64,000 nt of DNA from Candidatus Multivorans sp. (GCA_965247095.1 OZ251997.1:2880001-2944000); one strand, 5' to 3'. Counted from the stretch's first letter, positions 3,714 to 45,650 are shown. The notes: generated from the letters alone by a model not told the origin. Made by a program: numbers and translations.

Positions 3714-4967
3714 ATGGACATCGCGAGACCGGACCTGGCGCGGAAGAAAAAGGTCCGCCGGGTGACGTACTTCTCCCTCGCGGGCGTCTTGCTCGTGCTG
3801 GTCACGCTCGGCTTGCAACAGGTCCAGCCGACGGCGCCTCGAGTTGACCGCGACGCCGTCTACATCGACACGGTGCGGCGGGGCCCGCTGATCCGCGAGG
3901 TGCGGGGGAGAGGAACCCTGGTGCCGGAGAAGATCCGGTGGATTCCAGCGACGACGGAGGGCACCGTCGAGAGGATCGTGATCGATCCGGGGGCCGAGGT
4001 GACACCGAATTCGGTCATCGTCGAACTGAGCAACCCGGAACTCGAGCACCAGGCGAGAGAAGCGGAGCTCAACCTGCGCGCTGCCGAGGCGCGCTACGAG
4101 AACCGCAAGGTGGAACTCGAGAGCGAGTTGCTCATGCAGCGCGCGGGGCTCGCGAGTGTTGAGGCCGCACTGGTCGTTGCCCGGCTCGAGGCGGACGCCG
4201 ACGCCGAGCTGGCGAAGAATGGTCTGGCCTCCGCCATCGAGGTTCAGCGGGCGCAGGCGTCCAAGCGGGAACACGAAACGCGGTTCGCGTTGGAGCAGGA
4301 GCGTCTCGGCATCGCGGAAAGGACAATGGCGGCAAAGCTCGCCGTCGAGCGCACGGAGGTGGATCGGCTACGAGGCCTGTGGGAGCTCCGGCTCGATCAG
4401 GTCGCCGACCTGCAGGTCCGGGCCGGCATGCACGGCGTCCTCCAGCAGGTACCGCTCGACGAGGGCCAGCGCGTTACCGCGGGCACGAATCTGGCCCGAG
4501 TCGGCGACCCCACGGTGCTGAAGGCCGAGCTACGGATTGCCGAGACGCAGGCCAAGGACGTTCAGATCGGGCAGGTCGCGTCGGTCGACACGCGAAACGG
4601 GATCGTTCCGGGTCGCGTGGTACGGATCGATCCGGCGGTGGAAGAGGGGACGGTGACGGTCGATGTCGCGCTCGAAGGCAAACTGCCGCGCGGGGCGCGG
4701 CCGGACTTGACTGTCGCCGGGACGATCGAGCTCGAGCGGCTCGAGGAGGTGCTCTTCGTAGGTCGGCCGGTCGTCGGTCAGGAAGAGAGCGAAGTCAGTC
4801 TCTTCCGACTCGACGGCGAAGGGAACGGCGCTACCCGCACCCGCGTGCTCCTGGGGAGAAGCTCGGCCAACACGATCGAAGTAGTGGACGGGTTGCAGCC
4901 CGGCGACCAGGTCGTGCTGTCGGACATGTCCGCTTGGGACGAGTTCGATCGCGTTCGTATCGATTGA
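3714..4967 (+). CDS. Efflux periplasmic adaptor subunit (HlyD/MacA-like)
   Basis: N-terminal TM anchor, lipoyl-like halves (GTVERI..PG; VRAGMHGVL), coiled coil, C-terminal GLQPGDQVV; follows the ABC ATPase. Confidence 0.88.
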   Translation: MDIARPDLARKKKVRRVTYFSLAGVLLVLVTLGLQQVQPTAPRVDRDAVYIDTVRRGPLIREVRGRGTLVPEKIRWIPATTEGTVERIVIDPGAEVTPNSVIVELSNPELEHQAREAELNLRAAEARYENRKVELESELLMQRAGLASVEAALVVARLEADADAELAKNGLASAIEVQRAQASKREHETRFALEQERLGIAERTMAAKLAVERTEVDRLRGLWELRLDQVADLQVRAGMHGVLQQVPLDEGQRVTAGTNLARVGDPTVLKAELRIAETQAKDVQIGQVASVDTRNGIVPGRVVRIDPAVEEGTVTVDVALEGKLPRGARPDLTVAGTIELERLEEVLFVGRPVVGQEESEVSLFRLDGEGNGATRTRVLLGRSSANTIEVVDGLQPGDQVVLSDMSAWDEFDRVRID

Positions 4968-5608: not shown

Positions 5609-7075
5609 TCAGGCCAGGATCTCGCGCACCACCCGCGCCTTCTCGACGCCGGTCAGCCGGGCGTCCAGGCCGCGGTGCCTGTAGGTGAAGCGCTCGTGGT
5701 CGATGCCGAACAGGTGGAGGATGGTGGCCTGGAAGTCGCGGATATGGACCGGATCCTTGACGATGTTGTACGAGAAGTCGTCGGTCTCGCCGTGGACGAC
5801 GCCGCCCTTGACGCCGCCGCCGGCCATCCACAGGCTGTAGCAGCGCGGATGGTGGTCGCGGCCGTAGGTCTCGGCGGTCAGCCGCCCCTGGGAGTAGATC
5901 GTGCGGCCGAACTCGCCGCCCCAGATGACCAGGGTCTCATCGAAGAGGCCGCGTTCCTTGAGGTCCTGGACGAGAGCCCAGGCCGCCCGGTCGACGTCGC
6001 GCGCCTGGGCCGGCAGCACCAGTGGCAGAGCGGAATGGACGTCCCATCCCCGGTGGTAGATCTGCACGAAGCGCACGCCGCGCTCGACCAGCCGCCTGGC
6101 CATCAGGGCCGCGTTCTGGAACTTGCCGGGCTGCTTCGCCTCCTCGCCCCAGCGTTCGAAGGTGCTGTCGGGTTCGCTCGAGAGGTCGGCCATCTCCGGC
6201 ACCGAGGACTGCATGCGGAACGCCATCTCGTACTGCTCGATACGCGCGAGGGTCTCGGGATCGCCGACCTGGGCGTGCCGGAGGCGGTTCAGTTCGCTCA
6301 TGCCGTCGAGCACGCGGCGCCTCACGGCGGGTGAGACGCCCTCGGGATCCTTGAGATAGAGCACCGGCTCGTCGCCGGTCTGGAGCCCGACGCCGGCGTA
6401 TTCGGGTGAGAGGAACCCGGCGCTCCAGAGCTTGGCCGAGATCGCCTGCAGGCCGGCCGCGGGATGGCTGCGTTCCGCGTTCATGACCACGAAGGTGGGC
6501 AGGTTCTCGTTCATGCTGCCAAGGCCGTACGCGAACCAGGAACCGATGCACGGACGCCCCGGGATCTGCTGGCCGGTCTGGATGAAGGTGATGCCCGGCT
6601 CGTGGTTGATCGCGTCGGTGTGCATCGAGCGGATGATCGCGATGTCGTCCGCCATGCTGGCGGTGTGGGGCAGGAGCTCGGAGAACCAGGCGCCGCTCTC
6701 GCCGTGCTGGGAGAAATCGAAGACCGATGGCGCGATCGGGAAGCGCGACTGCCCGGAGGTCATCGTCGTCAGGCGCTGCCCCTGCCGGATCGAGTCGGGG
6801 AGATCCTGGTCGAAGTACTCCTTCATCTTCGGCTTGTAGTCGAGCAGGTCCATCTGCGGCGGCGCGCCCATCATGTGCAGGTAGATGCAGTGCTTCGCCT
6901 TCGGCGCGAAGTGCGGCAGATCGGGCAGGCCGCCGACCTGGTCACGGGCGGCGGTCAGCGCGAAAGCGTCCTCTGCGAACAGGTTGGCCAGCGCCAGGCC
7001 GCCGATCCCGCGCGCGGCGGTGCCGAAGAACTGGCGCCTCGTCTCTGCTCGAACGGTTTCCTTGAGTGGGTCCAT
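5609..7075 (-). CDS. DUF1501 domain protein (Tat-exported, sulfatase-like)
   Basis: TRRQFF Tat motif; IYLHMMGAPPQMDLLDYKP, ARRLVERGVRFVQ, WGGEFGRT, GRDHH. Confidence 0.93.
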   Translation of the reverse strand: MDPLKETVRAETRRQFFGTAARGIGGLALANLFAEDAFALTAARDQVGGLPDLPHFAPKAKHCIYLHMMGAPPQMDLLDYKPKMKEYFDQDLPDSIRQGQRLTTMTSGQSRFPIAPSVFDFSQHGESGAWFSELLPHTASMADDIAIIRSMHTDAINHEPGITFIQTGQQIPGRPCIGSWFAYGLGSMNENLPTFVVMNAERSHPAAGLQAISAKLWSAGFLSPEYAGVGLQTGDEPVLYLKDPEGVSPAVRRRVLDGMSELNRLRHAQVGDPETLARIEQYEMAFRMQSSVPEMADLSSEPDSTFERWGEEAKQPGKFQNAALMARRLVERGVRFVQIYHRGWDVHSALPLVLPAQARDVDRAAWALVQDLKERGLFDETLVIWGGEFGRTIYSQGRLTAETYGRDHHPRCYSLWMAGGGVKGGVVHGETDDFSYNIVKDPVHIRDFQATILHLFGIDHERFTYRHRGLDARLTGVEKARVVREILA

Positions 7076-33777: not shown

Positions 33778-34887
33778 TCAGTCGCAGCCCTCGCGGGTCT
33801 CCTCGATCAGGCCGTCGACGACGGCGTTCAGGTCGCCCTCTTCGGCGCGGCGCAACTGGCGGTCGGCGCTGGTGCCCTCGGCGAGGATCGTGTGGACGTA
33901 CTCGGCTTCCTTGCGGATGCCGAGTTCGTCCAGCACGTCGTCGACGAACTCGAGCAACTCCAGGGTCAGGAAGCGCAGCGGGACCTCCTCGGCCTTGCCG
34001 AAGTCGATCATCTTGCCGTCGATGCCGTAGCGCATGGCCCGCCACTTGTTCTCGTAGAGCAGGTGCCGGGGGTACCGGCGCCAGGCCTGGTTGTCGCGGC
34101 GCAGGCGGATCAGCTTGCCGACGATCGCCATGAACAACGCGGTCAGGCAGAGCGCCTCCTCGATCTTCGTGCAGACGTCGCAGACCCGGAACTCGATGGT
34201 CGGGAACTTGGGGTGCGGCCGGACGTCCCACCAGATCTGGGTCGGCTCCTCGATGCACTTCGTCTTCACGAGGACATTCACGAGGCGCTCGTACTCGGCG
34301 TAGGAACGGAACGAGGGCGGCAGGCCGGAGCGGGGCAGGCTTTCGAAGACCACCGAGCGATAAGACTTGAGCCCCGTCTTCCGCCCCTGCCAGAACGGTG
34401 AGCTAGTCGACAGGGCGAGCAGGTGGGGCAGGAAGTAGAGGGACTGGTCCATCACGTCGATCCGCAGATCCCGTTCCGGCACGCCGACGTGGACGTGCAT
34501 GCCGAAGATCAGCATGCGCCGCGCGACATCGCCGAAGCTCTCCTGCATCTTGATGTAGCGCTGGGCCTCGGTGACGTCCTGCTCCTGCCATGCGGAGAAC
34601 GGATGGCTGCTGGCGGCGGCGATGCACAGGCCGTTGTTGGCCGCCAGCTCGGCGACCCTTCGCCGCAGCCGGATCAGTTCCTGTCGCGCTTCGCCGATCG
34701 TCCTGCAGACCTCGCTGCCGACCTCGACCTGGCACTGGAGCTGCTCGGCCTTGATCTGCTCCTGGAGCACGATTTGACCCTGTTCCAGGAACTTCTGGAT
34801 GAAGGGCTTCAGTTCGCGGCTCTCCGGGTCGATGATCTGGTACTCCTCTTCGATGCCGATCGTGAGCTCGGGGAGCTTCGTCTTCAT
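33778..34887 (-). CDS. ybdK: Carboxylate-amine ligase (GCS2 / YbdK family)
   Basis: TIGIEEEYQ, FGMHVHVG, ALSTSSPFW.G, WWDVRPHP.FPTIEFRVCD, ENKWRA.RYG. Confidence 0.92.
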   Translation of the reverse strand: MKTKLPELTIGIEEEYQIIDPESRELKPFIQKFLEQGQIVLQEQIKAEQLQCQVEVGSEVCRTIGEARQELIRLRRRVAELAANNGLCIAAASSHPFSAWQEQDVTEAQRYIKMQESFGDVARRMLIFGMHVHVGVPERDLRIDVMDQSLYFLPHLLALSTSSPFWQGRKTGLKSYRSVVFESLPRSGLPPSFRSYAEYERLVNVLVKTKCIEEPTQIWWDVRPHPKFPTIEFRVCDVCTKIEEALCLTALFMAIVGKLIRLRRDNQAWRRYPRHLLYENKWRAMRYGIDGKMIDFGKAEEVPLRFLTLELLEFVDDVLDELGIRKEAEYVHTILAEGTSADRQLRRAEEGDLNAVVDGLIEETREGCD

Positions 34888-34970
34888 GCGTCTTCTCCGG
34901 GAAAGGGGAAGCAGTTTCGTTGCGGGACCAATCAATCGTATCCGGCTGCTCTGATACCCTGCGCGCTGCC

Positions 34971-36758
34971 ATGAGCCGGCTCGCGACCACTGCCTCGCGT
35001 GCGCTCGCTCGCGGCCTGATTGCCGTTCTCGTTGCTGCCGCGGTCCTGCTTGGACCCGCCTGCGGAGGGACTGGGGGGGCGCCTTCAGACGACGCTTCCT
35101 CCTCGTCCTGGGACTTCTACGGTCGGGCAAAGGCAGCGGAGGGGCAGGACGGCATGGTCTCGAGCGGCCACGGTCTGGCGTCCGACACCGGCGCCCGTGT
35201 CCTGGAACGGGGCGGCAACGCGGTCGACGCCGCGGTCGCGGTGGGCTTTGCCCTGGCGGCGGCGCTGCCGGCGGCGGGGAACATCGGCGGCGGCGGCTTC
35301 CTGGTCTATCGGTCGAACGAGGGCGAGGTCCGGGCGCTCGACTACCGCGAGAAAGCGCCGGGGGCGGCGACCCGCGACATGTTCCTCGACGACGGCGGCC
35401 AGGTCGCGGAGAGCGCGGTGATCGGCCATCTTGCGGCCGGCGTGCCCGGATCCGTGGCCGGGTTGTGGGAGATGCACCAGCAGTACGGCTCCATGCCCTG
35501 GGCCGACCTGGTCGCGCCGGCGATCGAGTTGGCGCGCGGCCACGAGGTCGACGAGGTCCGGTCGCGGAGCCTGGCGTCGGCGGCCGAACGGCTCAACCGG
35601 TTCCCGGCCAGCGCCGAACAGTTCCTCCAGGGTGGCGAGGCGCCGGCGCCGGGGACGCTCCTGGAGCAGCCCGACCTGGCGGCGACCCTGACGGCGATCG
35701 CCGAGCAGGGACCGGACGGTTTCTACCGGGGCCCGGTCGCCGACCTGATCGTGGCCGAGATGGAGAAGGGCGGAGGCCTCATCTCGCATCAGGATCTCGC
35801 CGACTACGCGCCGGCCTGGCGGGCGCCGGTCGAGGTCGAGTACCGCGGCCACACGATCTACTCGATGCCGCCGGTCTCGTCCGGCGGTCTGACCCTGGGC
35901 CTGATCCTGAACGTGCTGGAAGGCTGGGATTCCCTGCCTCCGTTCGGCAGCGCCGAACTGATCCACCTGGAGGCCGAGACGATGCGACTCGCGTTCCGTG
36001 ACCGCAACACGTTGCTCGGCGACCCGGACTTCGTCGACGTGCCGCGGGCGCAGTTCGAGTCCCAGGACTACGCCGACGGGCTGCGGGTGGAGATCGATCC
36101 CGAGCAGGCAACGCCCCTGCCGCCCCTTGAGATCGCGCCGCCGGCTGAGAGCACCGAAACGACCCACTACTCCGTGGTCGATCGCTGGGGCAATGCGGCC
36201 TCGATCACCACGACGATCAACAGCGGCTACGGCAACGCGGTCGTCGTCACCGGCGCCGGGTTCCTGCTCAACAACGAGATGGACGACTTCGCCGCCTCGC
36301 CGGGCCAGCCGAACCAGTTCGGGCTGGTCGAGGGCGAGAACAACGCGATCGTCCCCGGCAAGCGAATGCTGTCGTCGATGACCCCGAGCATCGTCCTCGA
36401 CCCGGATGGCGATCTGATGATGGTCGTCGGCACGCCCGGTGGTCCGACGATCATCACCACCGTCTACCATGTGATCTCGAACGTGATCGACCACCGCATG
36501 ACCCTGCAGCAGGCGGTCGAGAGCCCGCGGGTGCATCATCAGGCGTGGCCCGACAAGATCTTCTACGAGCAGGGCGGCCTTTCCGCCGCGACACTCGAGG
36601 GTCTGGCCGCGCGCGGCCACGAACCGTTCGAACGCGGCTTGAGCGGCGACGTGTCGGCGATCCGCGTCAGGGAAGAGGCGCTCGTCGGTGTCGCCGATCC
36701 GCGGCGGGGAGGCGGCGTCAGCGCGCCGCGGGGAGACGCGCCCGCGGGAGTCGAGTGA
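34971..36758 (+). CDS. ggt: Gamma-glutamyltransferase
   Basis: GGNAVDAAVA, GNIGGGGF, ETTHYSVVD, LNNEMDDF, MLSSMTP, GTPGG. Confidence 0.96.
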   Translation: MSRLATTASRALARGLIAVLVAAAVLLGPACGGTGGAPSDDASSSSWDFYGRAKAAEGQDGMVSSGHGLASDTGARVLERGGNAVDAAVAVGFALAAALPAAGNIGGGGFLVYRSNEGEVRALDYREKAPGAATRDMFLDDGGQVAESAVIGHLAAGVPGSVAGLWEMHQQYGSMPWADLVAPAIELARGHEVDEVRSRSLASAAERLNRFPASAEQFLQGGEAPAPGTLLEQPDLAATLTAIAEQGPDGFYRGPVADLIVAEMEKGGGLISHQDLADYAPAWRAPVEVEYRGHTIYSMPPVSSGGLTLGLILNVLEGWDSLPPFGSAELIHLEAETMRLAFRDRNTLLGDPDFVDVPRAQFESQDYADGLRVEIDPEQATPLPPLEIAPPAESTETTHYSVVDRWGNAASITTTINSGYGNAVVVTGAGFLLNNEMDDFAASPGQPNQFGLVEGENNAIVPGKRMLSSMTPSIVLDPDGDLMMVVGTPGGPTIITTVYHVISNVIDHRMTLQQAVESPRVHHQAWPDKIFYEQGGLSAATLEGLAARGHEPFERGLSGDVSAIRVREEALVGVADPRRGGGVSAPRGDAPAGVE

Positions 36759-36768
36759 CGGGCCGCAC

Positions 36769-36831
36769 ATGAACGGCCGGCGCATCTTCGCCGCGGTGAC
36801 GTCACGTCGCGTCGGCATCGACATCTCATGA
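36769..36831 (+). other. 20-codon mini-ORF duplicating the MFS N-terminus
   Basis: MNGRRIFAAVTSRRVGIDIS* versus MNGRRIFAAVTVGHLGIDIF; its TGA overlaps the ATG at 36828. Confidence 0.75.
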
Positions 36832-39800
36832 ACGGTCGGCGGATCTTCGCTGCGGTCACCGTAGGTCACCTCGGCATCGACATCTTCAACAGCATGGGGC
36901 CGGTGCTGCTGGCCTTCCTGAAGGCGCCGCTCGGCCTCAGCGTCACCCAGGTCGGCTTCGCTCTCGGTCTCTACCAGTTCCTGGCCGGCGCGACCCAGCC
37001 GGGGTTCGGCTGGGTAGTGGACCGCTTGGGCACCCGGTTCCTGGGGCCGGCAAGCGTGGCCGTCAACCTGGCCTGCATCGGCCTGGCGGTCGCCGCCGCC
37101 GACGCCTTTGGCAGCTACGCCCTGTTCCTGATTCCCTTCGCCATAGCGGCGGTGGCTTCCGGCGCGTTTCATCCGCTCGGCGTACTGCACGCCAGCACCG
37201 CGGATCTCTCGCGCTCATCTTTCTTCACGGCCGTGTTCTTTTTCTTCGGCCAGGTCGGGCTCGCCTGCGGACCGATGCTGGTCGGCTACGCGCTCGACCG
37301 CTCCGGTCTGACGGGCGTCTACTGGCTGTTGCTGGTGGTGGCGCCGGTTCCGCTCTTCATGGCCTTCGCGATGGGACCGCGGCGGCTCCACGAGCGGCGT
37401 TCGGAGTTGCTGCTCGAGGAAGAGGCGACGGCGGGAAACACGGGGCCGAGCGAACCCGCCCAGCCGGGTGTCATCGCGCTCCTGGCGCTGATCTTCGCGG
37501 GCCGCGCCTGGGTCTTCATCGGCACCCTCGTGTTCCTGCCGCTGCTGTTCAGACAGCAGGGTTGGAGCGGTCTCGAGCAGGGCGCGGTCGGCGGCCTGTT
37601 CACGCTCGGCGGCGCCATCTCAGCCATCGCTGCCGGCGCGCTCGTTGATCGTTGGGGCCGGCGCCTTGTGGTGTTCGTGCCCACCCTGCTCGGCGCCTTG
37701 CTGCTGGCGGTGCTGCCGGGGTCGGGAACCTGGGCGTTTGCGGTCGCCCTGGTGTGCGGCGCCCTGCTCGGGGCGCCCCACTCGGTCCTGATGGTCATGG
37801 CGCAGTCGCTCCTGCCCTGGCGGCGGGGCCTCGCTTCCGGCAGCGCACTCGGTTTCCTGTTCGCCATGGGCGCGGTGTCCAGTTCGGCCATCGGGTTTCT
37901 TGCCGAGCGCTTTGGGCTGGCTGAGGTGCTGCAGGTGGGTTCCGTGATCGGCGTGGCCGTGGCCTTTGCCTCCTTGCTGTTGCCCAGGGAGCGTCCGTCG
38001 CGTTTCGCCGCGGCGCCGGCGGTGTCGGCGGTTCTCGTCGTTGCGACCCTGGGCCTGACCTTGTTTGGGGCGCGCCCGGCCGCGGCGAGCCTGAATGGCG
38101 AGATCAACGGGCAGGTGCGTGACGTCGCGACGGACCTTCCGCTGGCCGGGGCCGAGATCAGGATCACCGGCGACCAGTTGTACAGCCCCCGGATCGTTCA
38201 CGCCGGGGACGGCGGCAGCTACCGTGCGCCCGGCCTGCCGCCGGGCGTCTACCACGTGGAGGCGACGGTGGACGGCTACGTCACCACCGTGGTGGAAAAC
38301 CTGGTTCTGGTCGTAGGCGGCGTTCTGCGGGTCGATTTCCAGATGCGGAGCGGCAGCGCCTCGATGCTCGAACTCGTCTCCTCGCCCCTGCTCGATGTGG
38401 TGACCGGCAGTGACGGGAATGTGCTCGCGGGCGACGATCTGCGGGAACTGCCGGGCAGTACCGCCGCCGTCAATCTCGATCTTGCCGCGGGTCTGGACCC
38501 GGCGGGCGGCGATCTCTCCGTCAACGGTTGGTCGCCGGGCTTCGCCACCTACCGGGTAGACGGCCAGGATCGCGTACTGCCGGGCCTTTCGGCGGCCGCC
38601 GTCGATCCGCGCTGGGTGGATCAGGTGCGGGTGCGTTCGATGGACTTCGCGGCGGCGATGGCCGGGCCGCACGTCGACGTGATCACGCGCTCGGGAGGGA
38701 CCGAGTGGAGTGTCAATGGCGGCTGGTCGGTGGTCGAACCGTTCGACACCGGGGAGCGGCCCGCGCTGCGTCTGCTGGGCGTGGAGCGGTTGCCCGCGGG
38801 TGGCGTCGATCGGAGGAGCGTGGATGGCGAGGAGGCGACCGTGTTCCTCGGCGGGCCACTGCGGGACAAGCGCGCCCGGGCCTTCGGCGGCTACTCGACG
38901 AGTCGCACGAGTGGGGAGGTGGAGCTCTTCGGCGCCGGTGCGCCGGTGACCTGGAAGGAGACGATCGAGCAGTCGGTGGGCAAGTTCGACTGGTGGGCCG
39001 GATCGGCCAGCAACCTGACTCTGAAGCACCATTCGGGATCGAGTGAGCTGGACGGCCGGAGGCCGGCGCTCCTGGTGCTTCCTTCGGCCGACGGGCGGGA
39101 GAACCGCCGGTCCACCGAGGAGACGACGAGCCTCAACGTCGAATGGGGAATCACGGACCGACTCTGGCTGCGAGTATTCGCGGGACGCTCGGACCAGCGG
39201 GGCCGCGAGGAGCCGTGGCAGGACGCCGGCGTCTACTTTGCGGCGCCTGCCGGAGGCCGCGCCGCGGGGTGGTACGAAGCTCGTCCCGCCGGCCTTGTCC
39301 GCCGAGCGGCGGAGCGCCGGAACTGGGCGGTCGAGCCGTCCTTCTTCCTGTTCGACCACACCCTGGAAGTGGGCGTGCAGAACTCCCGGGGAGACCTGGA
39401 GTTGGTCCGGTCCGACCATCCCGGAAGGCTGCTGGCGTTGCCCGGCGGGGCGCTACCGGAGTGGAGCGGCCGGCCCCTCGCGGCCACCGGTCTGCGGCAG
39501 GAGAAGCGTGCCCTCTACGTCCAGGACGCCTGGCGTCTGGCGGGTCCGTTCGACCGCCGCGTCACCCTCCACCTGGGTCTGCGTGCGGAGGAGGAGAGGA
39601 CCGGCCCGCTTGAGTTGGCTTTCGACGACCGCACGGAGCCGCGGCTCGGCTTTGTCTGGGATGTCGGCGGCCGCGGCAAGTGGAAGGTTTACGGCGGTGG
39701 GGCCTGGTCGCATGTCGACGCGTTCCGGTCGTTTGGCGGTCTGGCGGGGATCGACGCCGCGGGCGGTCTTGAGGCGGGCGATTTCTTCGGTTCCGGCCTC

Positions 39801-40766
39801 GACTTCGGCCGCGCTGCGGTGGATCCCGATCTGCGTCCAGGCCTCGTGCGGGAGGTGCAATTCGGTACCCGCTACCAGTTCCTGCCTGACGTGGTCATCT
39901 CGGCGCGCCTCGCCCGGCGCCGCCTTCGCGACGGCATTCGCCTGGTGCCCACCCTCGTTGACGGAGAGGTCGTGTCGACCCTGCTGACCCCCGGCCGCGG
40001 CGCCGGCCGCGCACCCTGGGGCGAGACCGGCGCCGACCTGCCGCGACTCGAGCAGGAGTGGTGGGGCGCCGAACTGAACGCGAACGTCGGTCTCAGCCCG
40101 GCCTGGCGCGTTCATCTCACCTACCTTTGGAGCCGGCTGACCGGCAACCACGAGGCCGGCGGCCTCGGGCTTCAGGCCCTCAGTGGGATGGACGTTCATC
40201 CGGGAGTGGCCGCGCTCGACCTCTGCTCGTCGCCGGTGCCCTGCGACGTCTTCGATGTGACCGATGAGAGCCGGCGTCTCGACGCCGACCGCGAGCACCA
40301 GCTCTCCGGCTGGCTCGTGCTGTCTCCCGGCGACCGGTTGTTGATGGCCCTCGTTTACCGCTTCCGCACCGGCGGGGCTTACGTGCCGCGGACCATGGCG
40401 GTACGCCTCGACGAGGCGAACCGCATCCTCAGCACCGGCCTCGCGCCGTTGCCTCGGAGTCCGGACACGCCGATCAAGAGCTCCGACCTCAAGCGCGCGG
40501 ACCTCTCCCTGACCTACCGCGTGCCGCTGCGCTCCAACGACCGGCGCCTGTCCCTGTTCGCCGAAGCCCTGAACGTCTTCGACCAGGACGCGGCGTCGGT
40601 GCTGTGGCCGCTCGCCTACCTCGATCCGGTACTGATCGGCTTTGGTCAGAGCGACCTGCTTGCCGCGGCGGCCGCGCAACAGGCGAGACCGGACCTCCGT
40701 GAGTCCCGGCCGGCTGCGTTCCCGGACAGCCGGCGGGTGCGTGCCGGGTTGCGGTTGCAGTTCTGA
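36828..40766 (+). CDS. MFS transporter (Fsr-like) fused to an Oar-like TonB-dependent receptor
   Basis: aa 1-~388: GWVVDRLG, SGAFHP, GALVDRWGRR, ~12 TM; aa ~389-420 signal-like ending PAAA; then carboxypeptidase-regulatory-like domain (GEINGQVRD..LAGAEI..GLPPGVY.VEA), plug (DVITRSG), barrel (ALYVQDAW, LHLGLR, PRLGFVWD), terminal ..GLRLQF. Confidence 0.85.
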   Translation: MNGRRIFAAVTVGHLGIDIFNSMGPVLLAFLKAPLGLSVTQVGFALGLYQFLAGATQPGFGWVVDRLGTRFLGPASVAVNLACIGLAVAAADAFGSYALFLIPFAIAAVASGAFHPLGVLHASTADLSRSSFFTAVFFFFGQVGLACGPMLVGYALDRSGLTGVYWLLLVVAPVPLFMAFAMGPRRLHERRSELLLEEEATAGNTGPSEPAQPGVIALLALIFAGRAWVFIGTLVFLPLLFRQQGWSGLEQGAVGGLFTLGGAISAIAAGALVDRWGRRLVVFVPTLLGALLLAVLPGSGTWAFAVALVCGALLGAPHSVLMVMAQSLLPWRRGLASGSALGFLFAMGAVSSSAIGFLAERFGLAEVLQVGSVIGVAVAFASLLLPRERPSRFAAAPAVSAVLVVATLGLTLFGARPAAASLNGEINGQVRDVATDLPLAGAEIRITGDQLYSPRIVHAGDGGSYRAPGLPPGVYHVEATVDGYVTTVVENLVLVVGGVLRVDFQMRSGSASMLELVSSPLLDVVTGSDGNVLAGDDLRELPGSTAAVNLDLAAGLDPAGGDLSVNGWSPGFATYRVDGQDRVLPGLSAAAVDPRWVDQVRVRSMDFAAAMAGPHVDVITRSGGTEWSVNGGWSVVEPFDTGERPALRLLGVERLPAGGVDRRSVDGEEATVFLGGPLRDKRARAFGGYSTSRTSGEVELFGAGAPVTWKETIEQSVGKFDWWAGSASNLTLKHHSGSSELDGRRPALLVLPSADGRENRRSTEETTSLNVEWGITDRLWLRVFAGRSDQRGREEPWQDAGVYFAAPAGGRAAGWYEARPAGLVRRAAERRNWAVEPSFFLFDHTLEVGVQNSRGDLELVRSDHPGRLLALPGGALPEWSGRPLAATGLRQEKRALYVQDAWRLAGPFDRRVTLHLGLRAEEERTGPLELAFDDRTEPRLGFVWDVGGRGKWKVYGGGAWSHVDAFRSFGGLAGIDAAGGLEAGDFFGSGLDFGRAAVDPDLRPGLVREVQFGTRYQFLPDVVISARLARRRLRDGIRLVPTLVDGEVVSTLLTPGRGAGRAPWGETGADLPRLEQEWWGAELNANVGLSPAWRVHLTYLWSRLTGNHEAGGLGLQALSGMDVHPGVAALDLCSSPVPCDVFDVTDESRRLDADREHQLSGWLVLSPGDRLLMALVYRFRTGGAYVPRTMAVRLDEANRILSTGLAPLPRSPDTPIKSSDLKRADLSLTYRVPLRSNDRRLSLFAEALNVFDQDAASVLWPLAYLDPVLIGFGQSDLLAAAAAQQARPDLRESRPAAFPDSRRVRAGLRLQF

Positions 40767-41302
40767 TGTCGGCTCAGGCGCAGGGAGACCGCAAGGTCAT
40801 CATCATCGCCGGGCCCAACGGGGCCGGGAAGACCACGTTCGCCTTGGAGTACCTGCCGTATGAGCCGGCCTGTCCGATCTTCGTCAACGCCGACCTCATT
40901 GCGGCGGGCCTGTCGCCGCTCCAGCCGGCAGCGGCGCTGTTTCGAGCCGGCCGTCTGATGCTGCAGGAGATTGACGATCACGCGAACCACGGCCGGAGCT
41001 TCGCCTTCGAGACGACGCTCGCTGGTCTAGGCTATGTACGGAGGATTCGCCGGTGGCAGGGCATGGGCTACGTGGTCAAGTTGATCTACCTGCCGCTCGC
41101 GACTCCCGAGGAGGCGATCAAGCGTGTGGAGCAGCGGGTGAAGCAAGGCGGCCACGGCATTCCTGAAGACATCATCCGGCGGCGCTTCGACCGGAGTTTG
41201 AAGAACTTCCGAACCGTGTATTGCGACATCGTTGACATCTGGCAGGTCCTCAACCGACGTGGTTACGATCTCGTCGTTGTGGAGGAGGGGGACAACCGAT
41301 GA
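40766..41302 (+). CDS. Zeta-toxin-like / AAA_33 P-loop protein
   Basis: IIAGPNGAGKTT, FVNADLIA.GL, SFAFETTL, RV..RVKQGGH.IPE..IRRRF. Confidence 0.9.
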   Translation: MSAQAQGDRKVIIIAGPNGAGKTTFALEYLPYEPACPIFVNADLIAAGLSPLQPAAALFRAGRLMLQEIDDHANHGRSFAFETTLAGLGYVRRIRRWQGMGYVVKLIYLPLATPEEAIKRVEQRVKQGGHGIPEDIIRRRFDRSLKNFRTVYCDIVDIWQVLNRRGYDLVVVEEGDNR

Positions 41303-41508
41303 GAGCGCAGAAGCGGCAGCTTCCTGTCTCACGACTTGACGATCCTGACATGCAGGCTGCACCCGCCGCTATGGAGCGCGCCCTGAGGCGTGCCCACAAG
41401 GTCGCGCACCAACACGGCACCACCGTTCTCGTGGTGGAGAGCGGCAAGCTGGTCGAAATCGAACCGGATCCGGCGATGTACGAAGACAAGTCGGGGCTCA
41501 GACCATGA
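41299..41508 (+). CDS. Small partner (putative antitoxin) of the AAA protein
   Basis: ATGA overlap; AAMERALRRA..VA..HGT..LVVESGKLVEI. Confidence 0.7.
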   Translation: MRAQKRQLPVSRLDDPDMQAAPAAMERALRRAHKVAHQHGTTVLVVESGKLVEIEPDPAMYEDKSGLRP

Positions 41509-41512
41509 ATGA

Positions 41513-41550
41513 CCGGCGCGAAGCGCCGGCCTCCGGAAGTTCTGCCGCGC
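41513..41550 (+). repeat. Right end of composite REP (module D + terminal repeat)
   Basis: CCGGCGCGAAGCGCCGGCCTCCGGAAGTTCTGCCGCGC matches 12255-12292. Confidence 0.85.
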
Positions 41551-41581
41551 CAGGCCACGTGCGAAGGATCCAGCCGAGGGA

Positions 41582-41926
41582 ATGCGACAACCGATGAAAG
41601 CGGAGGACCGCCTCGTTGCGGCCATGGTGGACGCCATCGTTGCCGAAGTCGATCCGGAACGGGTGATTCTCTTCGGCTCGCGGGCGCGAGGGGAGGAGGG
41701 GGAGAAGTCGGACGTGGACCTCGTCGTGATCGAGGCCGAGCCGTTCGGCGAGAGCAGGAGTCGGCACGCGGAAATGGTGCGCATTGATGTCGCGCTCGCG
41801 AAGTTCAGGGTGCCTGCGGACGTCCTCGTCTACAGCGAAGACGAAGTCGAGTACTGGCGCGATTCGATCAACCACGTGCTGGCGCGTGCACTGCGGGAGG
41901 GGCGAGCCCTCTATGAGCGACCCTAA
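41582..41926 (+). CDS. Minimal nucleotidyltransferase (MNT antitoxin)
   Basis: VILFGSRARG....SDVDLVVI...DVLVYS. Confidence 0.92.
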   Translation: MRQPMKAEDRLVAAMVDAIVAEVDPERVILFGSRARGEEGEKSDVDLVVIEAEPFGESRSRHAEMVRIDVALAKFRVPADVLVYSEDEVEYWRDSINHVLARALREGRALYERP

Positions 41927-42158
41927 GTGCGCTCGTCCGATCACCCACAACATCGCCCAACTGCTCGACGCTCTGCAAGCGCATGAGATGGAGGCCGTGG
42001 GCTACCGGGATCTGATTGCCCTCAATCCGTATGCGGTTCGGCTCCGCTATGTGGGGCAAGAGCCCGAGACGCCGGGAGTCGATCGTGAAGCGGTCGTTGG
42101 GCGAATCGAGTCGCTCATGGAGCGGGTGCAGTGGCAACTGAGTCGCTCGCTCCAATAG
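41913..42158 (+). pseudogene. HEPN domain gene with probable in-frame internal deletion
   Basis: MSDPKCAR joined directly to PITHNIAQLL...LNPYAVRLRY; the A..DL / FHAQQA.EK..KA helices expected in this family are absent; 81 aa. Confidence 0.65.
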
Positions 42159-43085: not shown

Positions 43086-45650
43086 CTACACCAGTTCGCT
43101 CAGCCGCCGGAGCGCCGCCAGCAGGTCCGGCTGCTCCGTCAGTACGCCGCGCAGCGGGTCGGTCTTGAGCTTCTTGAGCCGCTCCGGCACCGAGTGGATG
43201 TTGTGGTCGCGCAGGTCGAGGCCGGGTTTGACCTCGGACCAGCGGAGCGGTGTGGACACCGGCGCCGCGGGGAGCGGGCGGACGCTGAAGGGGGCGACCA
43301 GGAGGCGGCCGCGGCCGTTCTGGACGAAGTCGATGTAGACCTTGCCGTCGCGACGTTCGGGGTTGCGGGTGATGGTGGCGATGTCGGGCAACTGGCGGCA
43401 GATGATCTGGGCGATGAGTTGGCCGAGGCTGCGGGACTGTTCGAAGGTGCAGGCGCCGCCGAGCGGCAGGAGGACGTGCAGGCCGCTCGAGCCGCTGGTC
43501 TTGACGAAGCTGGGCAGCTTGATCTTCCGGCACAGGCGGCGGATGGCCAGGGCGATCTCGATCACGTCCTCGAACGGTGCGTCCTTGGGGTCAAGGTCGA
43601 GGATGCACCAGTCGGGCTGGCCGAGCTGGTGGCGCCGGCTGGACCACACGTGGAGGACGATCGCGCCCAGGTTGGCGACGTAGATCAGGCTCTCCCGGTC
43701 CTGGCAAACGAAGTACTCGACTTCCTTGTCCGTCCGGGGATTGGTCAGCTTGACCCTCTGCAGCCAGTTCGGTGCGAAGTCGGGCGCGTTTTTCTGGAAG
43801 AACGACTTGCCGTGGATCCCGTCCGGATAACGGGTCATCACCAGCGGACGGTCGGTGAGGTAGAGCTGCATCGCGTCGGCGATGGCGGCGTAGAAGTCGA
43901 TCAGGTCGCCCTTCGTGTAGCCCTCGACCGGCCAGAAGACCTTGGAGGTGTTCGTCACTTCGACGCGACGCTCCGGCGGCGCCGGCGGGGTGGCCCCGGG
44001 GGCTCGCGGCCCGGCGCCGCGCACGCAGTCCTCGATGGGCTTGTCATCGCGTAGGCGCAGAAAGACCGGGTGCCGGAGCATGCCGTGGGGCGTCCACTCC
44101 TTGTAGCGGACCTCGCAGATCAGCTCCGGGTCCGGCTCGACCCAGGTCTGGTCTTCGATCCGGCCGCCCATCAGGTCTCCCGCGGTCAGCTCGTCGCCCG
44201 CGGGCGACCGGCAGGGCGGCGCCTCAAGCTGGGCCAGGGAGAGCCGTTCGGTCAGTTCGCTGAGTGCGGCGTCGCTTAAGCCGGTGCCGACGCGCCCGGC
44301 GTAGACGAGCCCGGCAGCCTCGGCGTCCCACACCGCGAGGTGGAGCGAGCCGAAACCGACCCGGCTGCCCTTGGGCGGCGACATGCCGACGATCGCGAAG
44401 TCGGCGGTCCGTTCGGTTCGCAGCTTCACCCAGGACGACGAGCGGCGGCCGACGTAGCGGGAGTCGCCGTCCTTGGCCATCGCGCCCTCGAGGCCCATGG
44501 CCGCCACCTGCTCGAAGAAGGCCTCGCCCTGTTCCTCGATGTGGTCCGAGTAGCGGAGCGGTCCGGCCGGGGACAGGACCTTCGCCAGCAGGGCCTTCCG
44601 CTCCACGAGGGGCAGCGACCTCAGGTCCGACCCCTCGAAGGCGACGAGATCGAAGGCGAACAGGGTCGCGGGCCGGCGCACGGCGGCCTGTTCGATGTCG
44701 ACCGGGCGGCTGAGCAGGGCCCGCGTCTGCAGTCTGGCGAAGCTCGGTCTGCCGCCTGAGTCGAGCGCGACGACCTCGCCGTCCAGCACCAGGGACCGCA
44801 CCGGCAGGGCCCGCAGGGCGCGGGTCAGTTCGGGGTAGAGCGCGGTCACGTCGCCGCCGTTCCGGTAGCGCAGGAAGACGCTGCCGCCTTCCTTGGCCGC
44901 CACCAGCCGGTAGCCGTCGTACTTCAGCTCGTAGATCCAGCCCTGGCGCGAGAAGGGCCGGGCGCCGGTGACCGCCAGCATCAGCGGCAGAGACCGCGGA
45001 TCGACCCGGCGGCTGCGCGCGGCCGAGTCGGCGACGTCGGCGCGAACCTCCTCGATCCGCTCGCATCCGTCGCGCAGTTCCTCGACGGTGAGACCCGAGA
45101 GCACGGACTGGGGCGGCAGGTCATCGTCGCTGTCGCCGCCATCCGGCCGCGCGGCGGCGTCGGGCTTCTTCATCAGCAGCCACTGGTTCCCGTCGTCCTG
45201 CTGGCGCGGGTCTCTGATGCGGAACAGGGTCCAGACACCGCGCAGCTTGTAGCCGTGCAGCTCGAACAGGAGCTTGCCGGCTTCCATGCCGGCGACCGGA
45301 TCCTCGAGCGGCCTCCAGCGGCCGCTGTCCCAGACGATCATCGCGCCGGCGCCGTAGTTGCCGGCGGGGATCGATCCTTCGAAGTCGGCGTACTCCAGCG
45401 GGTGGTCCTCGGTGGCCACCGCCAGGCGCTTGACCTCCGGGTCGAGACTGGGTCCGCGCGGCACGGCCCAGGACTTGAGCGTGCCTTCGAGTTCCAGGCG
45501 CAGGTCGAAGTGGACCCGGCGTGCCGCGTGCTTCTGGACCACGAAGCGGCCGCCGCCTGTCCCCGTCGCAGGACCGAAGGGTTCTGGCGTCGCCTCGCTC
45601 GATCGCTTGCGGCGGTAGGCCTCGAGATTGCCGCTCGGCATCCGCTGCAT
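43086..45650 (-). CDS. ligD: NHEJ DNA ligase D (phosphoesterase-ligase-polymerase)
   Basis: FVVQKHAARRVHFDLRLE; ELKYDGYR; EGAMAK; RYPDGI.G.SFFQK; KTSGSSGLH. Confidence 0.96.
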   Translation of the reverse strand: MQRMPSGNLEAYRRKRSSEATPEPFGPATGTGGGRFVVQKHAARRVHFDLRLELEGTLKSWAVPRGPSLDPEVKRLAVATEDHPLEYADFEGSIPAGNYGAGAMIVWDSGRWRPLEDPVAGMEAGKLLFELHGYKLRGVWTLFRIRDPRQQDDGNQWLLMKKPDAAARPDGGDSDDDLPPQSVLSGLTVEELRDGCERIEEVRADVADSAARSRRVDPRSLPLMLAVTGARPFSRQGWIYELKYDGYRLVAAKEGGSVFLRYRNGGDVTALYPELTRALRALPVRSLVLDGEVVALDSGGRPSFARLQTRALLSRPVDIEQAAVRRPATLFAFDLVAFEGSDLRSLPLVERKALLAKVLSPAGPLRYSDHIEEQGEAFFEQVAAMGLEGAMAKDGDSRYVGRRSSSWVKLRTERTADFAIVGMSPPKGSRVGFGSLHLAVWDAEAAGLVYAGRVGTGLSDAALSELTERLSLAQLEAPPCRSPAGDELTAGDLMGGRIEDQTWVEPDPELICEVRYKEWTPHGMLRHPVFLRLRDDKPIEDCVRGAGPRAPGATPPAPPERRVEVTNTSKVFWPVEGYTKGDLIDFYAAIADAMQLYLTDRPLVMTRYPDGIHGKSFFQKNAPDFAPNWLQRVKLTNPRTDKEVEYFVCQDRESLIYVANLGAIVLHVWSSRRHQLGQPDWCILDLDPKDAPFEDVIEIALAIRRLCRKIKLPSFVKTSGSSGLHVLLPLGGACTFEQSRSLGQLIAQIICRQLPDIATITRNPERRDGKVYIDFVQNGRGRLLVAPFSVRPLPAAPVSTPLRWSEVKPGLDLRDHNIHSVPERLKKLKTDPLRGVLTEQPDLLAALRRLSELV

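Follow-up and report, generated by a model that had tools for sequence, protein, structure and literature searches.

The subject of this study is a single long gene of Candidatus Multivorans sp., which encodes an inner-membrane transporter of the major facilitator superfamily (MFS) and an outer-membrane TonB-dependent receptor of the Oar type in one chain. It lies in a 64,000-nucleotide stretch of DNA (GCA_965247095.1 OZ251997.1:2880001-2944000), hereafter called the window, which corresponds to G000:C1:2880001-2944000 in a one-contig genome of 4.6 Mb; positions are counted from the first letter of the window. A first-pass annotation made from the sequence alone had reported an uninterrupted frame of 1312 codons, and our open reading frame (ORF) call and translation agree with it. 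Pfam recognizes MFS_1 (PF07690; 86.1 bits against a cut-off of 33.4, in two stretches, the best of them covering residues 21-240), CarboxypepD_reg (PF13620; residues 426-507, 51.3 bits against 32.3) and TonB_dep_Rec_b-barrel (PF00593; residues 759-1250, 40.5 bits against 27) in the fused protein, and a scan against NCBIfam returned matches far below threshold only, with no curated model at its cut-off. We conclude that the two proteins form a real gene fusion, which is fixed across the genus.

The MFS half displays 12 hydrophobic segments in its hydropathy profile, with a long central loop at residues 183-214, and lysines and arginines number 16 in the loops assigned to the cytoplasm versus 4 in those on the periplasmic side. 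Residues 1-520 were modelled with AlphaFold2 at a mean predicted local distance difference test (pLDDT) score of 80.4, the MFS core being helical with values mostly above 90. Read by eye, two basic loops, DRLGTR behind helix 2 and DRWGRR behind helix 8, are similar to the MFS 'motif A'. Pfam, hydropathy and the charge count all bear out the transporter of about 12 transmembrane helices that had been proposed for this half. A sequence search of the PDB with the MFS half gave no match at E ≤ 0.01.

The receptor half opens with a beta-sandwich, found at residues 424-506 in the model of residues 1-520 and again in a separate model of residues 421-1312. The latter (pLDDT 65.8, predicted template modelling score 0.73) is good for the N-terminal sandwich and most of the barrel strands, and the top 50 Foldseek matches to it in the PDB are all TonB-dependent transporters (PqqU, PirA, Cir, YncD, PfeA and others), with E-values from 8.7e-26 to about 1e-20 and template modelling scores of 0.55-0.67 on the target. 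Judging from the model, the receptor half has the fold of a TonB-dependent transporter, and full-length alignments to solved transporters of this kind span the plug region. A conserved strand, LELVSSPLLD, was seen by eye at the place expected for a TonB box. The C-terminal phenylalanine (...GLRLQF) is nearly invariant in the alignment of receptors; together with CarboxypepD_reg and PF00593, this ending upholds the earlier description of an Oar-like receptor terminating in LRLQF. In the ESM Atlas, the nearest clusters were stand-alone Oar-like receptors at a score of 0.75, which we treat as leads only, and no fused cluster was among the matches listed. The genome also holds at least 12 other Oar-like paralogs with CarboxypepD_reg (for example L013-L017), in frames of about 950-1100 amino acids with no MFS ahead of them.

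Between the halves the protein reads ...ASLLLP-RERPSRF-AAAPAVSAVLVVATLGLTLFG-ARPAAA/SLNGEINGQVRD, where the slash marks a predicted signal peptidase I site, after position 38087 and between A420 and S421. This segment fits the layout of a Sec signal peptide: PRERPSRF supplies three lysines or arginines, a core of 21 residues follows, and alanines occupy positions -3 to -1. The 57 genomes available for the family were searched, 42 from the window's genus and 15 from 12 other genera, and the pattern of conservation across the genus is that of a cleavage site. Position -1 is alanine in all 42 genomes and position -3 is alanine in 40 and valine in two, position -2 varies more than any other column and takes 11 different residues, proline prevails at -4 (36 of 42) and -6 (32 of 42), and the hydrophobic core drifts freely; beyond the site, LNGEINGQ at +2 to +9 is invariant in every genome. 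The basic n-region, hydrophobic core and AxA site before residue 421 that had been read from the window alone are in agreement with the sequence, and so are the conserved -1 and -3. An ordinary counterpart exists in the same genome, where the paralogous Oar-like receptor L014 has an N-terminal signal peptide ending in AYA/Q directly before CarboxypepD_reg. Two tandem signal peptidase I genes lie outside the window (G000:C1:3262361-3263635; 145.6 and 118.6 bits against a cut-off of 47).

The orientation of this segment follows from the topology of the transporter. Because 12 helices precede it and the positive charges are biased 16 to 4, the basic stretch after helix 12 should be cytoplasmic, and the 13th segment would therefore run from inside to outside and place the A-x-A motif in the periplasm. 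Helix and charge counts thus favor the cytoplasmic MFS C-terminus and the signal-peptide orientation assumed at the outset. Residues 397-413 are modelled as a lone helix of low confidence (pLDDT 40-51) flanked by disordered linkers, and in this AlphaFold2 model the 13th helix appears not to be packed into the MFS fold.

Coordinates of the fused gene, its parts and the gene directly upstream, in positions of the window
Feature	Position	Strand	Evidence
Fused ORF, 1312 codons plus stop	36828..40766	+	ATG start, no internal stop
MFS half, residues 1-385, 12 transmembrane helices, both termini predicted cytoplasmic	36828..37982	+	Pfam, hydropathy, AlphaFold2
Basic cytoplasmic linker PRERPSRF (putative n-region), residues 386-393	37983..38006	+	
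Signal-peptide-like segment, residues 394-420, hydrophobic core and c-region ARPAAA	38007..38087	+	Column statistics, 42 genomes
CarboxypepD_reg beta-sandwich, N-terminal extension, residues 426-507	38103..38348	+	PF13620, models
Linker with TonB-box-like strand, then plug region, about residues 508-658 (approximate bounds)	38349..38801	+	
Beta-barrel, about residues 660-1312, ending GLRLQF	38805..40763	+	PF00593, Foldseek
Gamma-glutamyltranspeptidase (GGT), 70-nt gap to the fused ORF, start codon uncertain	34920..36758	+	Pfam G_glu_transpept, E 3.2e-166

The fused frame is a feature of the genus and well beyond what chance would produce. Residues 1-1312 were matched without a stop in 38 of the 42 genus genomes, at 67-100% identity, and the junction itself is in frame in 41, including G008, G012 and G017, three genomes whose gene is broken elsewhere, at a contig end or through frameshifts within the receptor half. 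The sole genome with a split there is G011. Two conserved motifs that flank the junction lie 279 nt apart in 39 genomes, 276 in G059, 282 in G066 and 278 in G011, and hence all junction indels but the one in G011 are whole codons. The first-pass annotation had named a finding that would speak against a fusion, a stop codon at the junction of close relatives together with a separate start; 41 of the 42 genus genomes read through. In addition, a large protein collection holds 35 clusters of proteins of 1300-1336 amino acids carrying all three domains, 62-100% identical and coming from many assemblies. Three proteins of odd length (P0011, P0006 and P0012) were considered as split forms, but they are truncated or frameshifted elsewhere, with the junction in frame.

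Sequencing runs were also inspected at the junction. In run X5, from another study, one contig of 4,845 nt spans 37500-38600 with two substitutions and no indel, although this near-identical run may be the window's own source. A contig of 217 nt from a third study spans the predicted cleavage site. Run X10 yielded no contig across 37796-38017, and the RNA-library runs X19 and X20 gave small contigs at 38293-38600 only, none of them across the junction. The ratio of nonsynonymous to synonymous substitution rates (dN/dS, Nei-Gojobori) is 0.188 for the MFS half, 0.424 for the linker and signal segment (residues 386-420) and 0.230 for the receptor half, as calculated from 682 of the 703 pairs, which are not independent of each other, among the 38 uninterrupted genes (G008, G011, G012 and G017 were left out). 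Judged by these rates, selection acts on every part in this frame: both halves are functional genes, and the junction evolves as a relaxed but coding segment.

The origin of the fusion can be traced in the sister genera. An orthologous stand-alone MFS gene is present in all 15 outgroup genomes from the 12 genera (46-60% identity), with a stop codon soon after helix 12. In six of the 15 (G054, G072, G053, G051, G049 and G050), the next gene on the same strand encodes a separate Oar-like receptor that has a signal peptide of its own. Its start overlaps the MFS stop in four of these six, as ATGA in G054, TTGA in G072 and GTGA in both G053 and G051; in G049 the MFS stop is followed by AGGAGG and then TTG, and G050 has a longer spacer between the two genes. 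In G054 the genes run in the order GCS2 (a family-2 glutamate-cysteine ligase, minus strand), GGT, an ORF of 400 amino acids (5672-6874) that we read by eye as diguanylate-cyclase-like, MFS, receptor and LigD (minus strand; L054 2593-14034), and the order in the window, GCS2 (minus), GGT, fused gene and LigD (minus), mirrors it. Since this wider gene order is shared, the downstream receptor of G054 is the positional ortholog of the fused half. Comparison of these sequences shows that the ancestor had adjacent MFS and receptor genes whose stop and start overlapped as NTGA. For such a pair, a one-base phase change just upstream of the overlap suffices for fusion. The fusion thus arose once, between two translationally coupled genes, and, given the two-gene form in the sister genera, the internal segment is the former signal peptide of the receptor.

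The one split genome deserves separate treatment. In G011, an MFS ORF of 427 amino acids ends in TGA and the receptor lies in another frame, with a CTGA overlap followed by a lysine codon (L028, about 4250-4300) and GGAG 8 nt upstream of the CTG, an arrangement that mimics the ancestral coupled one. G011 was considered as an ancestral, never-fused state, but this was rejected as the best reading, since the three trees, those of the MFS half, of GGT and of the receptor half, all place it inside the fused genomes. In the MFS-half tree, built with 18 of the 42 ingroup rows and rooted with the 15 outgroups, G011 is sister to G022, and a tree holding all fused genes together is rejected by the approximately unbiased (AU) test (p-AU 0.0065). 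G011 falls inside a 97% clade in the GGT tree (p-AU 0.21) and is nested in the receptor-half tree (p-AU 0.069); the tested group was named after the first tree had been seen, and the test is significant only for the MFS half. A programmed frameshift was also considered and set aside, as no slippery site was seen by eye. Quite probably, G011 is a secondary re-split, caused by the deletion of a single C within a stretch of C, and it is possible that the missing base is a homopolymer sequencing error, the split form being known from one assembly only.

How, then, does the receptor reach the outer membrane? Our favored explanation, to which we assign a probability of roughly 0.7, is that the fused protein is a polyprotein cut by signal peptidase I. 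The MFS half would be inserted co-translationally, its N- and C-terminus both remaining cytoplasmic. While the basic loop, P-[KR]-[RQ]-E-P-x-R, stays inside, the 13th segment would enter the Sec channel from inside to outside, and the 892 residues that follow would be threaded into the periplasm. Signal peptidase I would then cut after the conserved A-x-A, after residue 420, leaving an MFS protein of 13 helices in the inner membrane and releasing a normal mature receptor, which would begin with S, G, Q or R (S in the window) followed by LNGEINGQ and would be assembled into the outer membrane by means of its C-terminal phenylalanine signal. The two transporters would in this way be made in a strict 1:1 ratio from one translation start.

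Several points weigh against this explanation. The fused genomes all belong to one genus and represent one evolutionary event, so that counts across such kin overstate their independence, and G011 shows that the split form is viable, or at least exists. A codon of the type CTG, TTG or GTG is kept at the old receptor start in 37 of the 42 genomes, 22 of which also have a motif resembling a Shine-Dalgarno sequence, and some internal initiation may occur there. The Pfam Plug family (PF07715) is unmatched in the receptor at E ≤ 0.1, and the plug region (mature residues 110-240) is modelled at low confidence. The structure models cannot tell a cut chain from an uncut one. Finally, to our knowledge the passage of an 892-residue barrel precursor through Sec behind a protein of 12 helices has no studied precedent in bacteria.

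A first alternative is that the receptor is made mainly from an internal start of its own, the vestigial CTG, TTG or GTG with its Shine-Dalgarno-like motif, while the read-through fusion is a tolerated by-product. In favor of such initiation, the position of the former receptor start holds CTG in 31 of the aligned genomes, TTG in four, GTG in two and a codon other than NTG in five, and 22 of the 37 genomes with NTG at this place carry GGAG, GAGG or AGGA 5-18 nt upstream; moreover, G011 seems to use a CTG of this kind in its CTGA overlap. However, CTG is a very weak initiator in bacteria, and where the receptor once started, the fused chain now has an internal leucine, valine or phenylalanine. 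In the window's genome the vestigial start position (38004-38006) is TTC, and five of the 42 genomes lack NTG there, yet the receptor half is intact and constrained. From -40 to -20, 22 of the 42 genomes have no ATG, GTG or TTG. A receptor started at the old codon would also lose its basic n-region, whose charges lie 5' of that codon. The first-pass annotation had seen neither a ribosome-binding site nor a start for the receptor, which proved too strict in one respect: the window does contain TTG codons in frame at 37974 and 37980, as well as GTG at 38022. These codons are unconserved (CTG, CTC or CTA in the relatives), and no purine-rich motif precedes them; a vestigial Shine-Dalgarno-like AGGGAG is found at 37986-37991, in the linker. 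A scan of 36500-41000 for promoters and terminators found no promoter-like site (0.1 expected), in particular no sigma-70-like promoter inside the gene, and two terminator-like sites (2.5 expected), and is uninformative or at best weak evidence in this phylum. Because the frame is the same and holds no stop, every ribosome that starts at the MFS start makes the fusion anyway. The aligned sequences show no conserved internal start, an independent receptor start is not needed, and we consider it unlikely that the receptor comes mainly from such a start.

A second alternative accepts the fused product but leaves it uncut, so that one covalent unit would span the envelope, its inner-membrane MFS tethered through the 13th helix to its outer-membrane barrel. 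Conservation of the frame and of a hydrophobic segment would be expected here too, and the sequence forbids nothing outright. Yet a pure membrane anchor needs no small residues at -1 and -3, whereas these are invariant or nearly so, with -2 free to vary and helix-breaking prolines at -4 and -6. Furthermore, the first folded domain of the receptor follows the site after only about 3-5 residues; this periplasmic domain would be pinned at the inner membrane, and, for a periplasm of usual width, the linker would be too short to reach a barrel in the outer membrane. The stand-alone orthologs of the sister genera, and likewise G011, work without a tether. A covalent trans-envelope unit is thus quite improbable, and the cut polyprotein is much better supported than an uncut protein.

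Separation of the halves by another protease, or at a site other than that between A420 and S421, is a further alternative. We grant it very little likelihood, given that -1 and -3 of the proposed site are the sole strongly patterned positions of the linker and that the mature end matches those of ordinary paralogs and of the outgroup receptors. As for an error of assembly or sequencing, or a pseudogene that decays in this genome alone, there is only the a priori oddity of the gene and the fact that high-GC DNA keeps chance frames open, with many spurious ORFs, to recommend it, and the 41 of 42 in-frame junctions, the 35 clusters from independent assemblies, the dN/dS values of 0.19-0.42 and the contig without indel make its likelihood practically nil.

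The fused gene lies within a neighborhood that is conserved across genera and comprises GCS2 (minus strand), GGT, MFS, receptor and LigD (minus strand), with the flanking genes at 33778-36758 and 43086-45650 of the window. GGT lies directly upstream in all 42 genus loci and within 7 kb in 12 of the 15 outgroup loci. The conserved GGT and GCS2 neighbors hint weakly that the transporter pair serves gamma-glutamyl or thiol metabolism. In the window, an insert at 40766-42158, between the receptor stop and LigD, resembles toxin-antitoxin cargo: it contains a zeta-toxin/AAA_33-like gene (40766-41302), found in five of the 57 loci, whose ATG overlaps the TGA of the receptor by one base, and a nucleotidyltransferase gene (41582-41926) with an overlapping partner ORF.

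The fused gene itself has a patchwork history. The receptor half of the window is 90-92% identical to those of G016, G063 and G070 (loci L002, L031 and L035), while over residues 1-520, which include the first 100 residues of the receptor, the window shares 90% identity with G063 but only 76-77% with G016 and G070. In line with these mosaic identities, the trees of the two halves conflict. This suggests that the fused gene is a mosaic produced by recombination, with a breakpoint near helix 12.

Searches beyond the family returned no second case. In a library of 1.84 billion representatives, the MFS half has 2112 matches; the best 150 of them include a single one of receptor length, the genus's own cluster. 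A protein of 785 amino acids (P0061) was examined as a candidate second fusion and rejected, as it carries MFS_1 only, and a search limited by length to long proteins that have a related MFS domain recovered only this family (35 of 35). As far as these searches reach, the fusion happened once and is confined to a single genus. Our literature search, which covered papers without their supplementary files, found no described fusion of an MFS or any other inner-membrane transporter with a TonB-dependent receptor, which matches the earlier remark that none was known. The names given to four of the fused proteins in their sources are 'MFS transporter' (three) and 'FSR family fosmidomycin resistance protein-like MFS transporter' (one); because all four name an MFS transporter only, the receptor is hidden by these annotations.

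The usual view of outer-membrane beta-barrel proteins is that each is made as a precursor on its own, carries its signal peptide at the N-terminus and is exported late in translation or after it. The gene described here is a natural and long-lived case, retained while the protein diverged to about 65-70% identity, in which a barrel stands behind a polytopic inner-membrane protein, has its only export signal in the interior of the chain and must follow a co-translationally inserted transporter into the Sec channel. Should the predicted cut be true, the gene would encode a bacterial polyprotein that supplies the two membranes from a single start of translation, and would then offer a test case for the co-translational targeting of an outer-membrane protein, for the handling by signal peptidase I of an internal site after 12 helices, and for the benefit of a fixed 1:1 synthesis of inner- and outer-membrane transporters. 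Moreover, the fusion links this MFS functionally to this receptor as a 'Rosetta stone' pair, which aids the assignment of partners among the many orphan Oar-like receptors of the Acidobacteriota.

With respect to known systems, the MFS half resembles the Fsr-like (fosmidomycin-resistance type) transporters in its 12 helices and its MFS_1 type, and one source applies that name to a fused homolog; it differs in having no NCBIfam model at cut-off and no sequence-matching solved structure (E ≤ 0.01). For the receptor half, the closest parallel is the Oar subclass of TonB-dependent transporters (TBDTs), described in the accessible part of a 2019 survey as having a CarboxypepD_reg extension, a plug with a TonB box and a 22-strand barrel (PMC6434023). 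Like Oar of Myxococcus xanthus, as far as that account goes, the window's receptor has the CarboxypepD_reg extension and a large barrel, with a putative plug region between them; unlike Oar and the paralogs seen here, which have an N-terminal signal peptide of their own, it sits behind an MFS of 12 helices. The same part of the survey, which covered 34,893 TBDTs, lists five N-terminal architectures, none with an inner-membrane transporter, and states that a Plug match was required, whereas the fused protein of the window has none (PMC6434023). Outer-membrane porins are only rarely fused, and the examples in the accessible text of the paper concerned join porin to porin (PMC4827864). The nearest relatives in gene content are the adjacent pairs of the sister genera, which share with the window an orthologous MFS and the gene order, and in G054 also the wider synteny of GCS2, GGT and LigD, but which remain two genes with a stop and a start and have receptors only about 22-26% identical to the fused half. 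In mechanism, the nearest precedent would be FbcH of Bradyrhizobium japonicum (Thony-Meyer, James & Hennecke 1991, PNAS 88:5001): one gene reportedly gives rise to a polytopic inner-membrane protein and an exported protein, cytochromes b and c1, which are separated at an internal signal sequence and are both said to stay at the inner membrane, with no outer-membrane barrel, in contrast to what is proposed for the fused gene.

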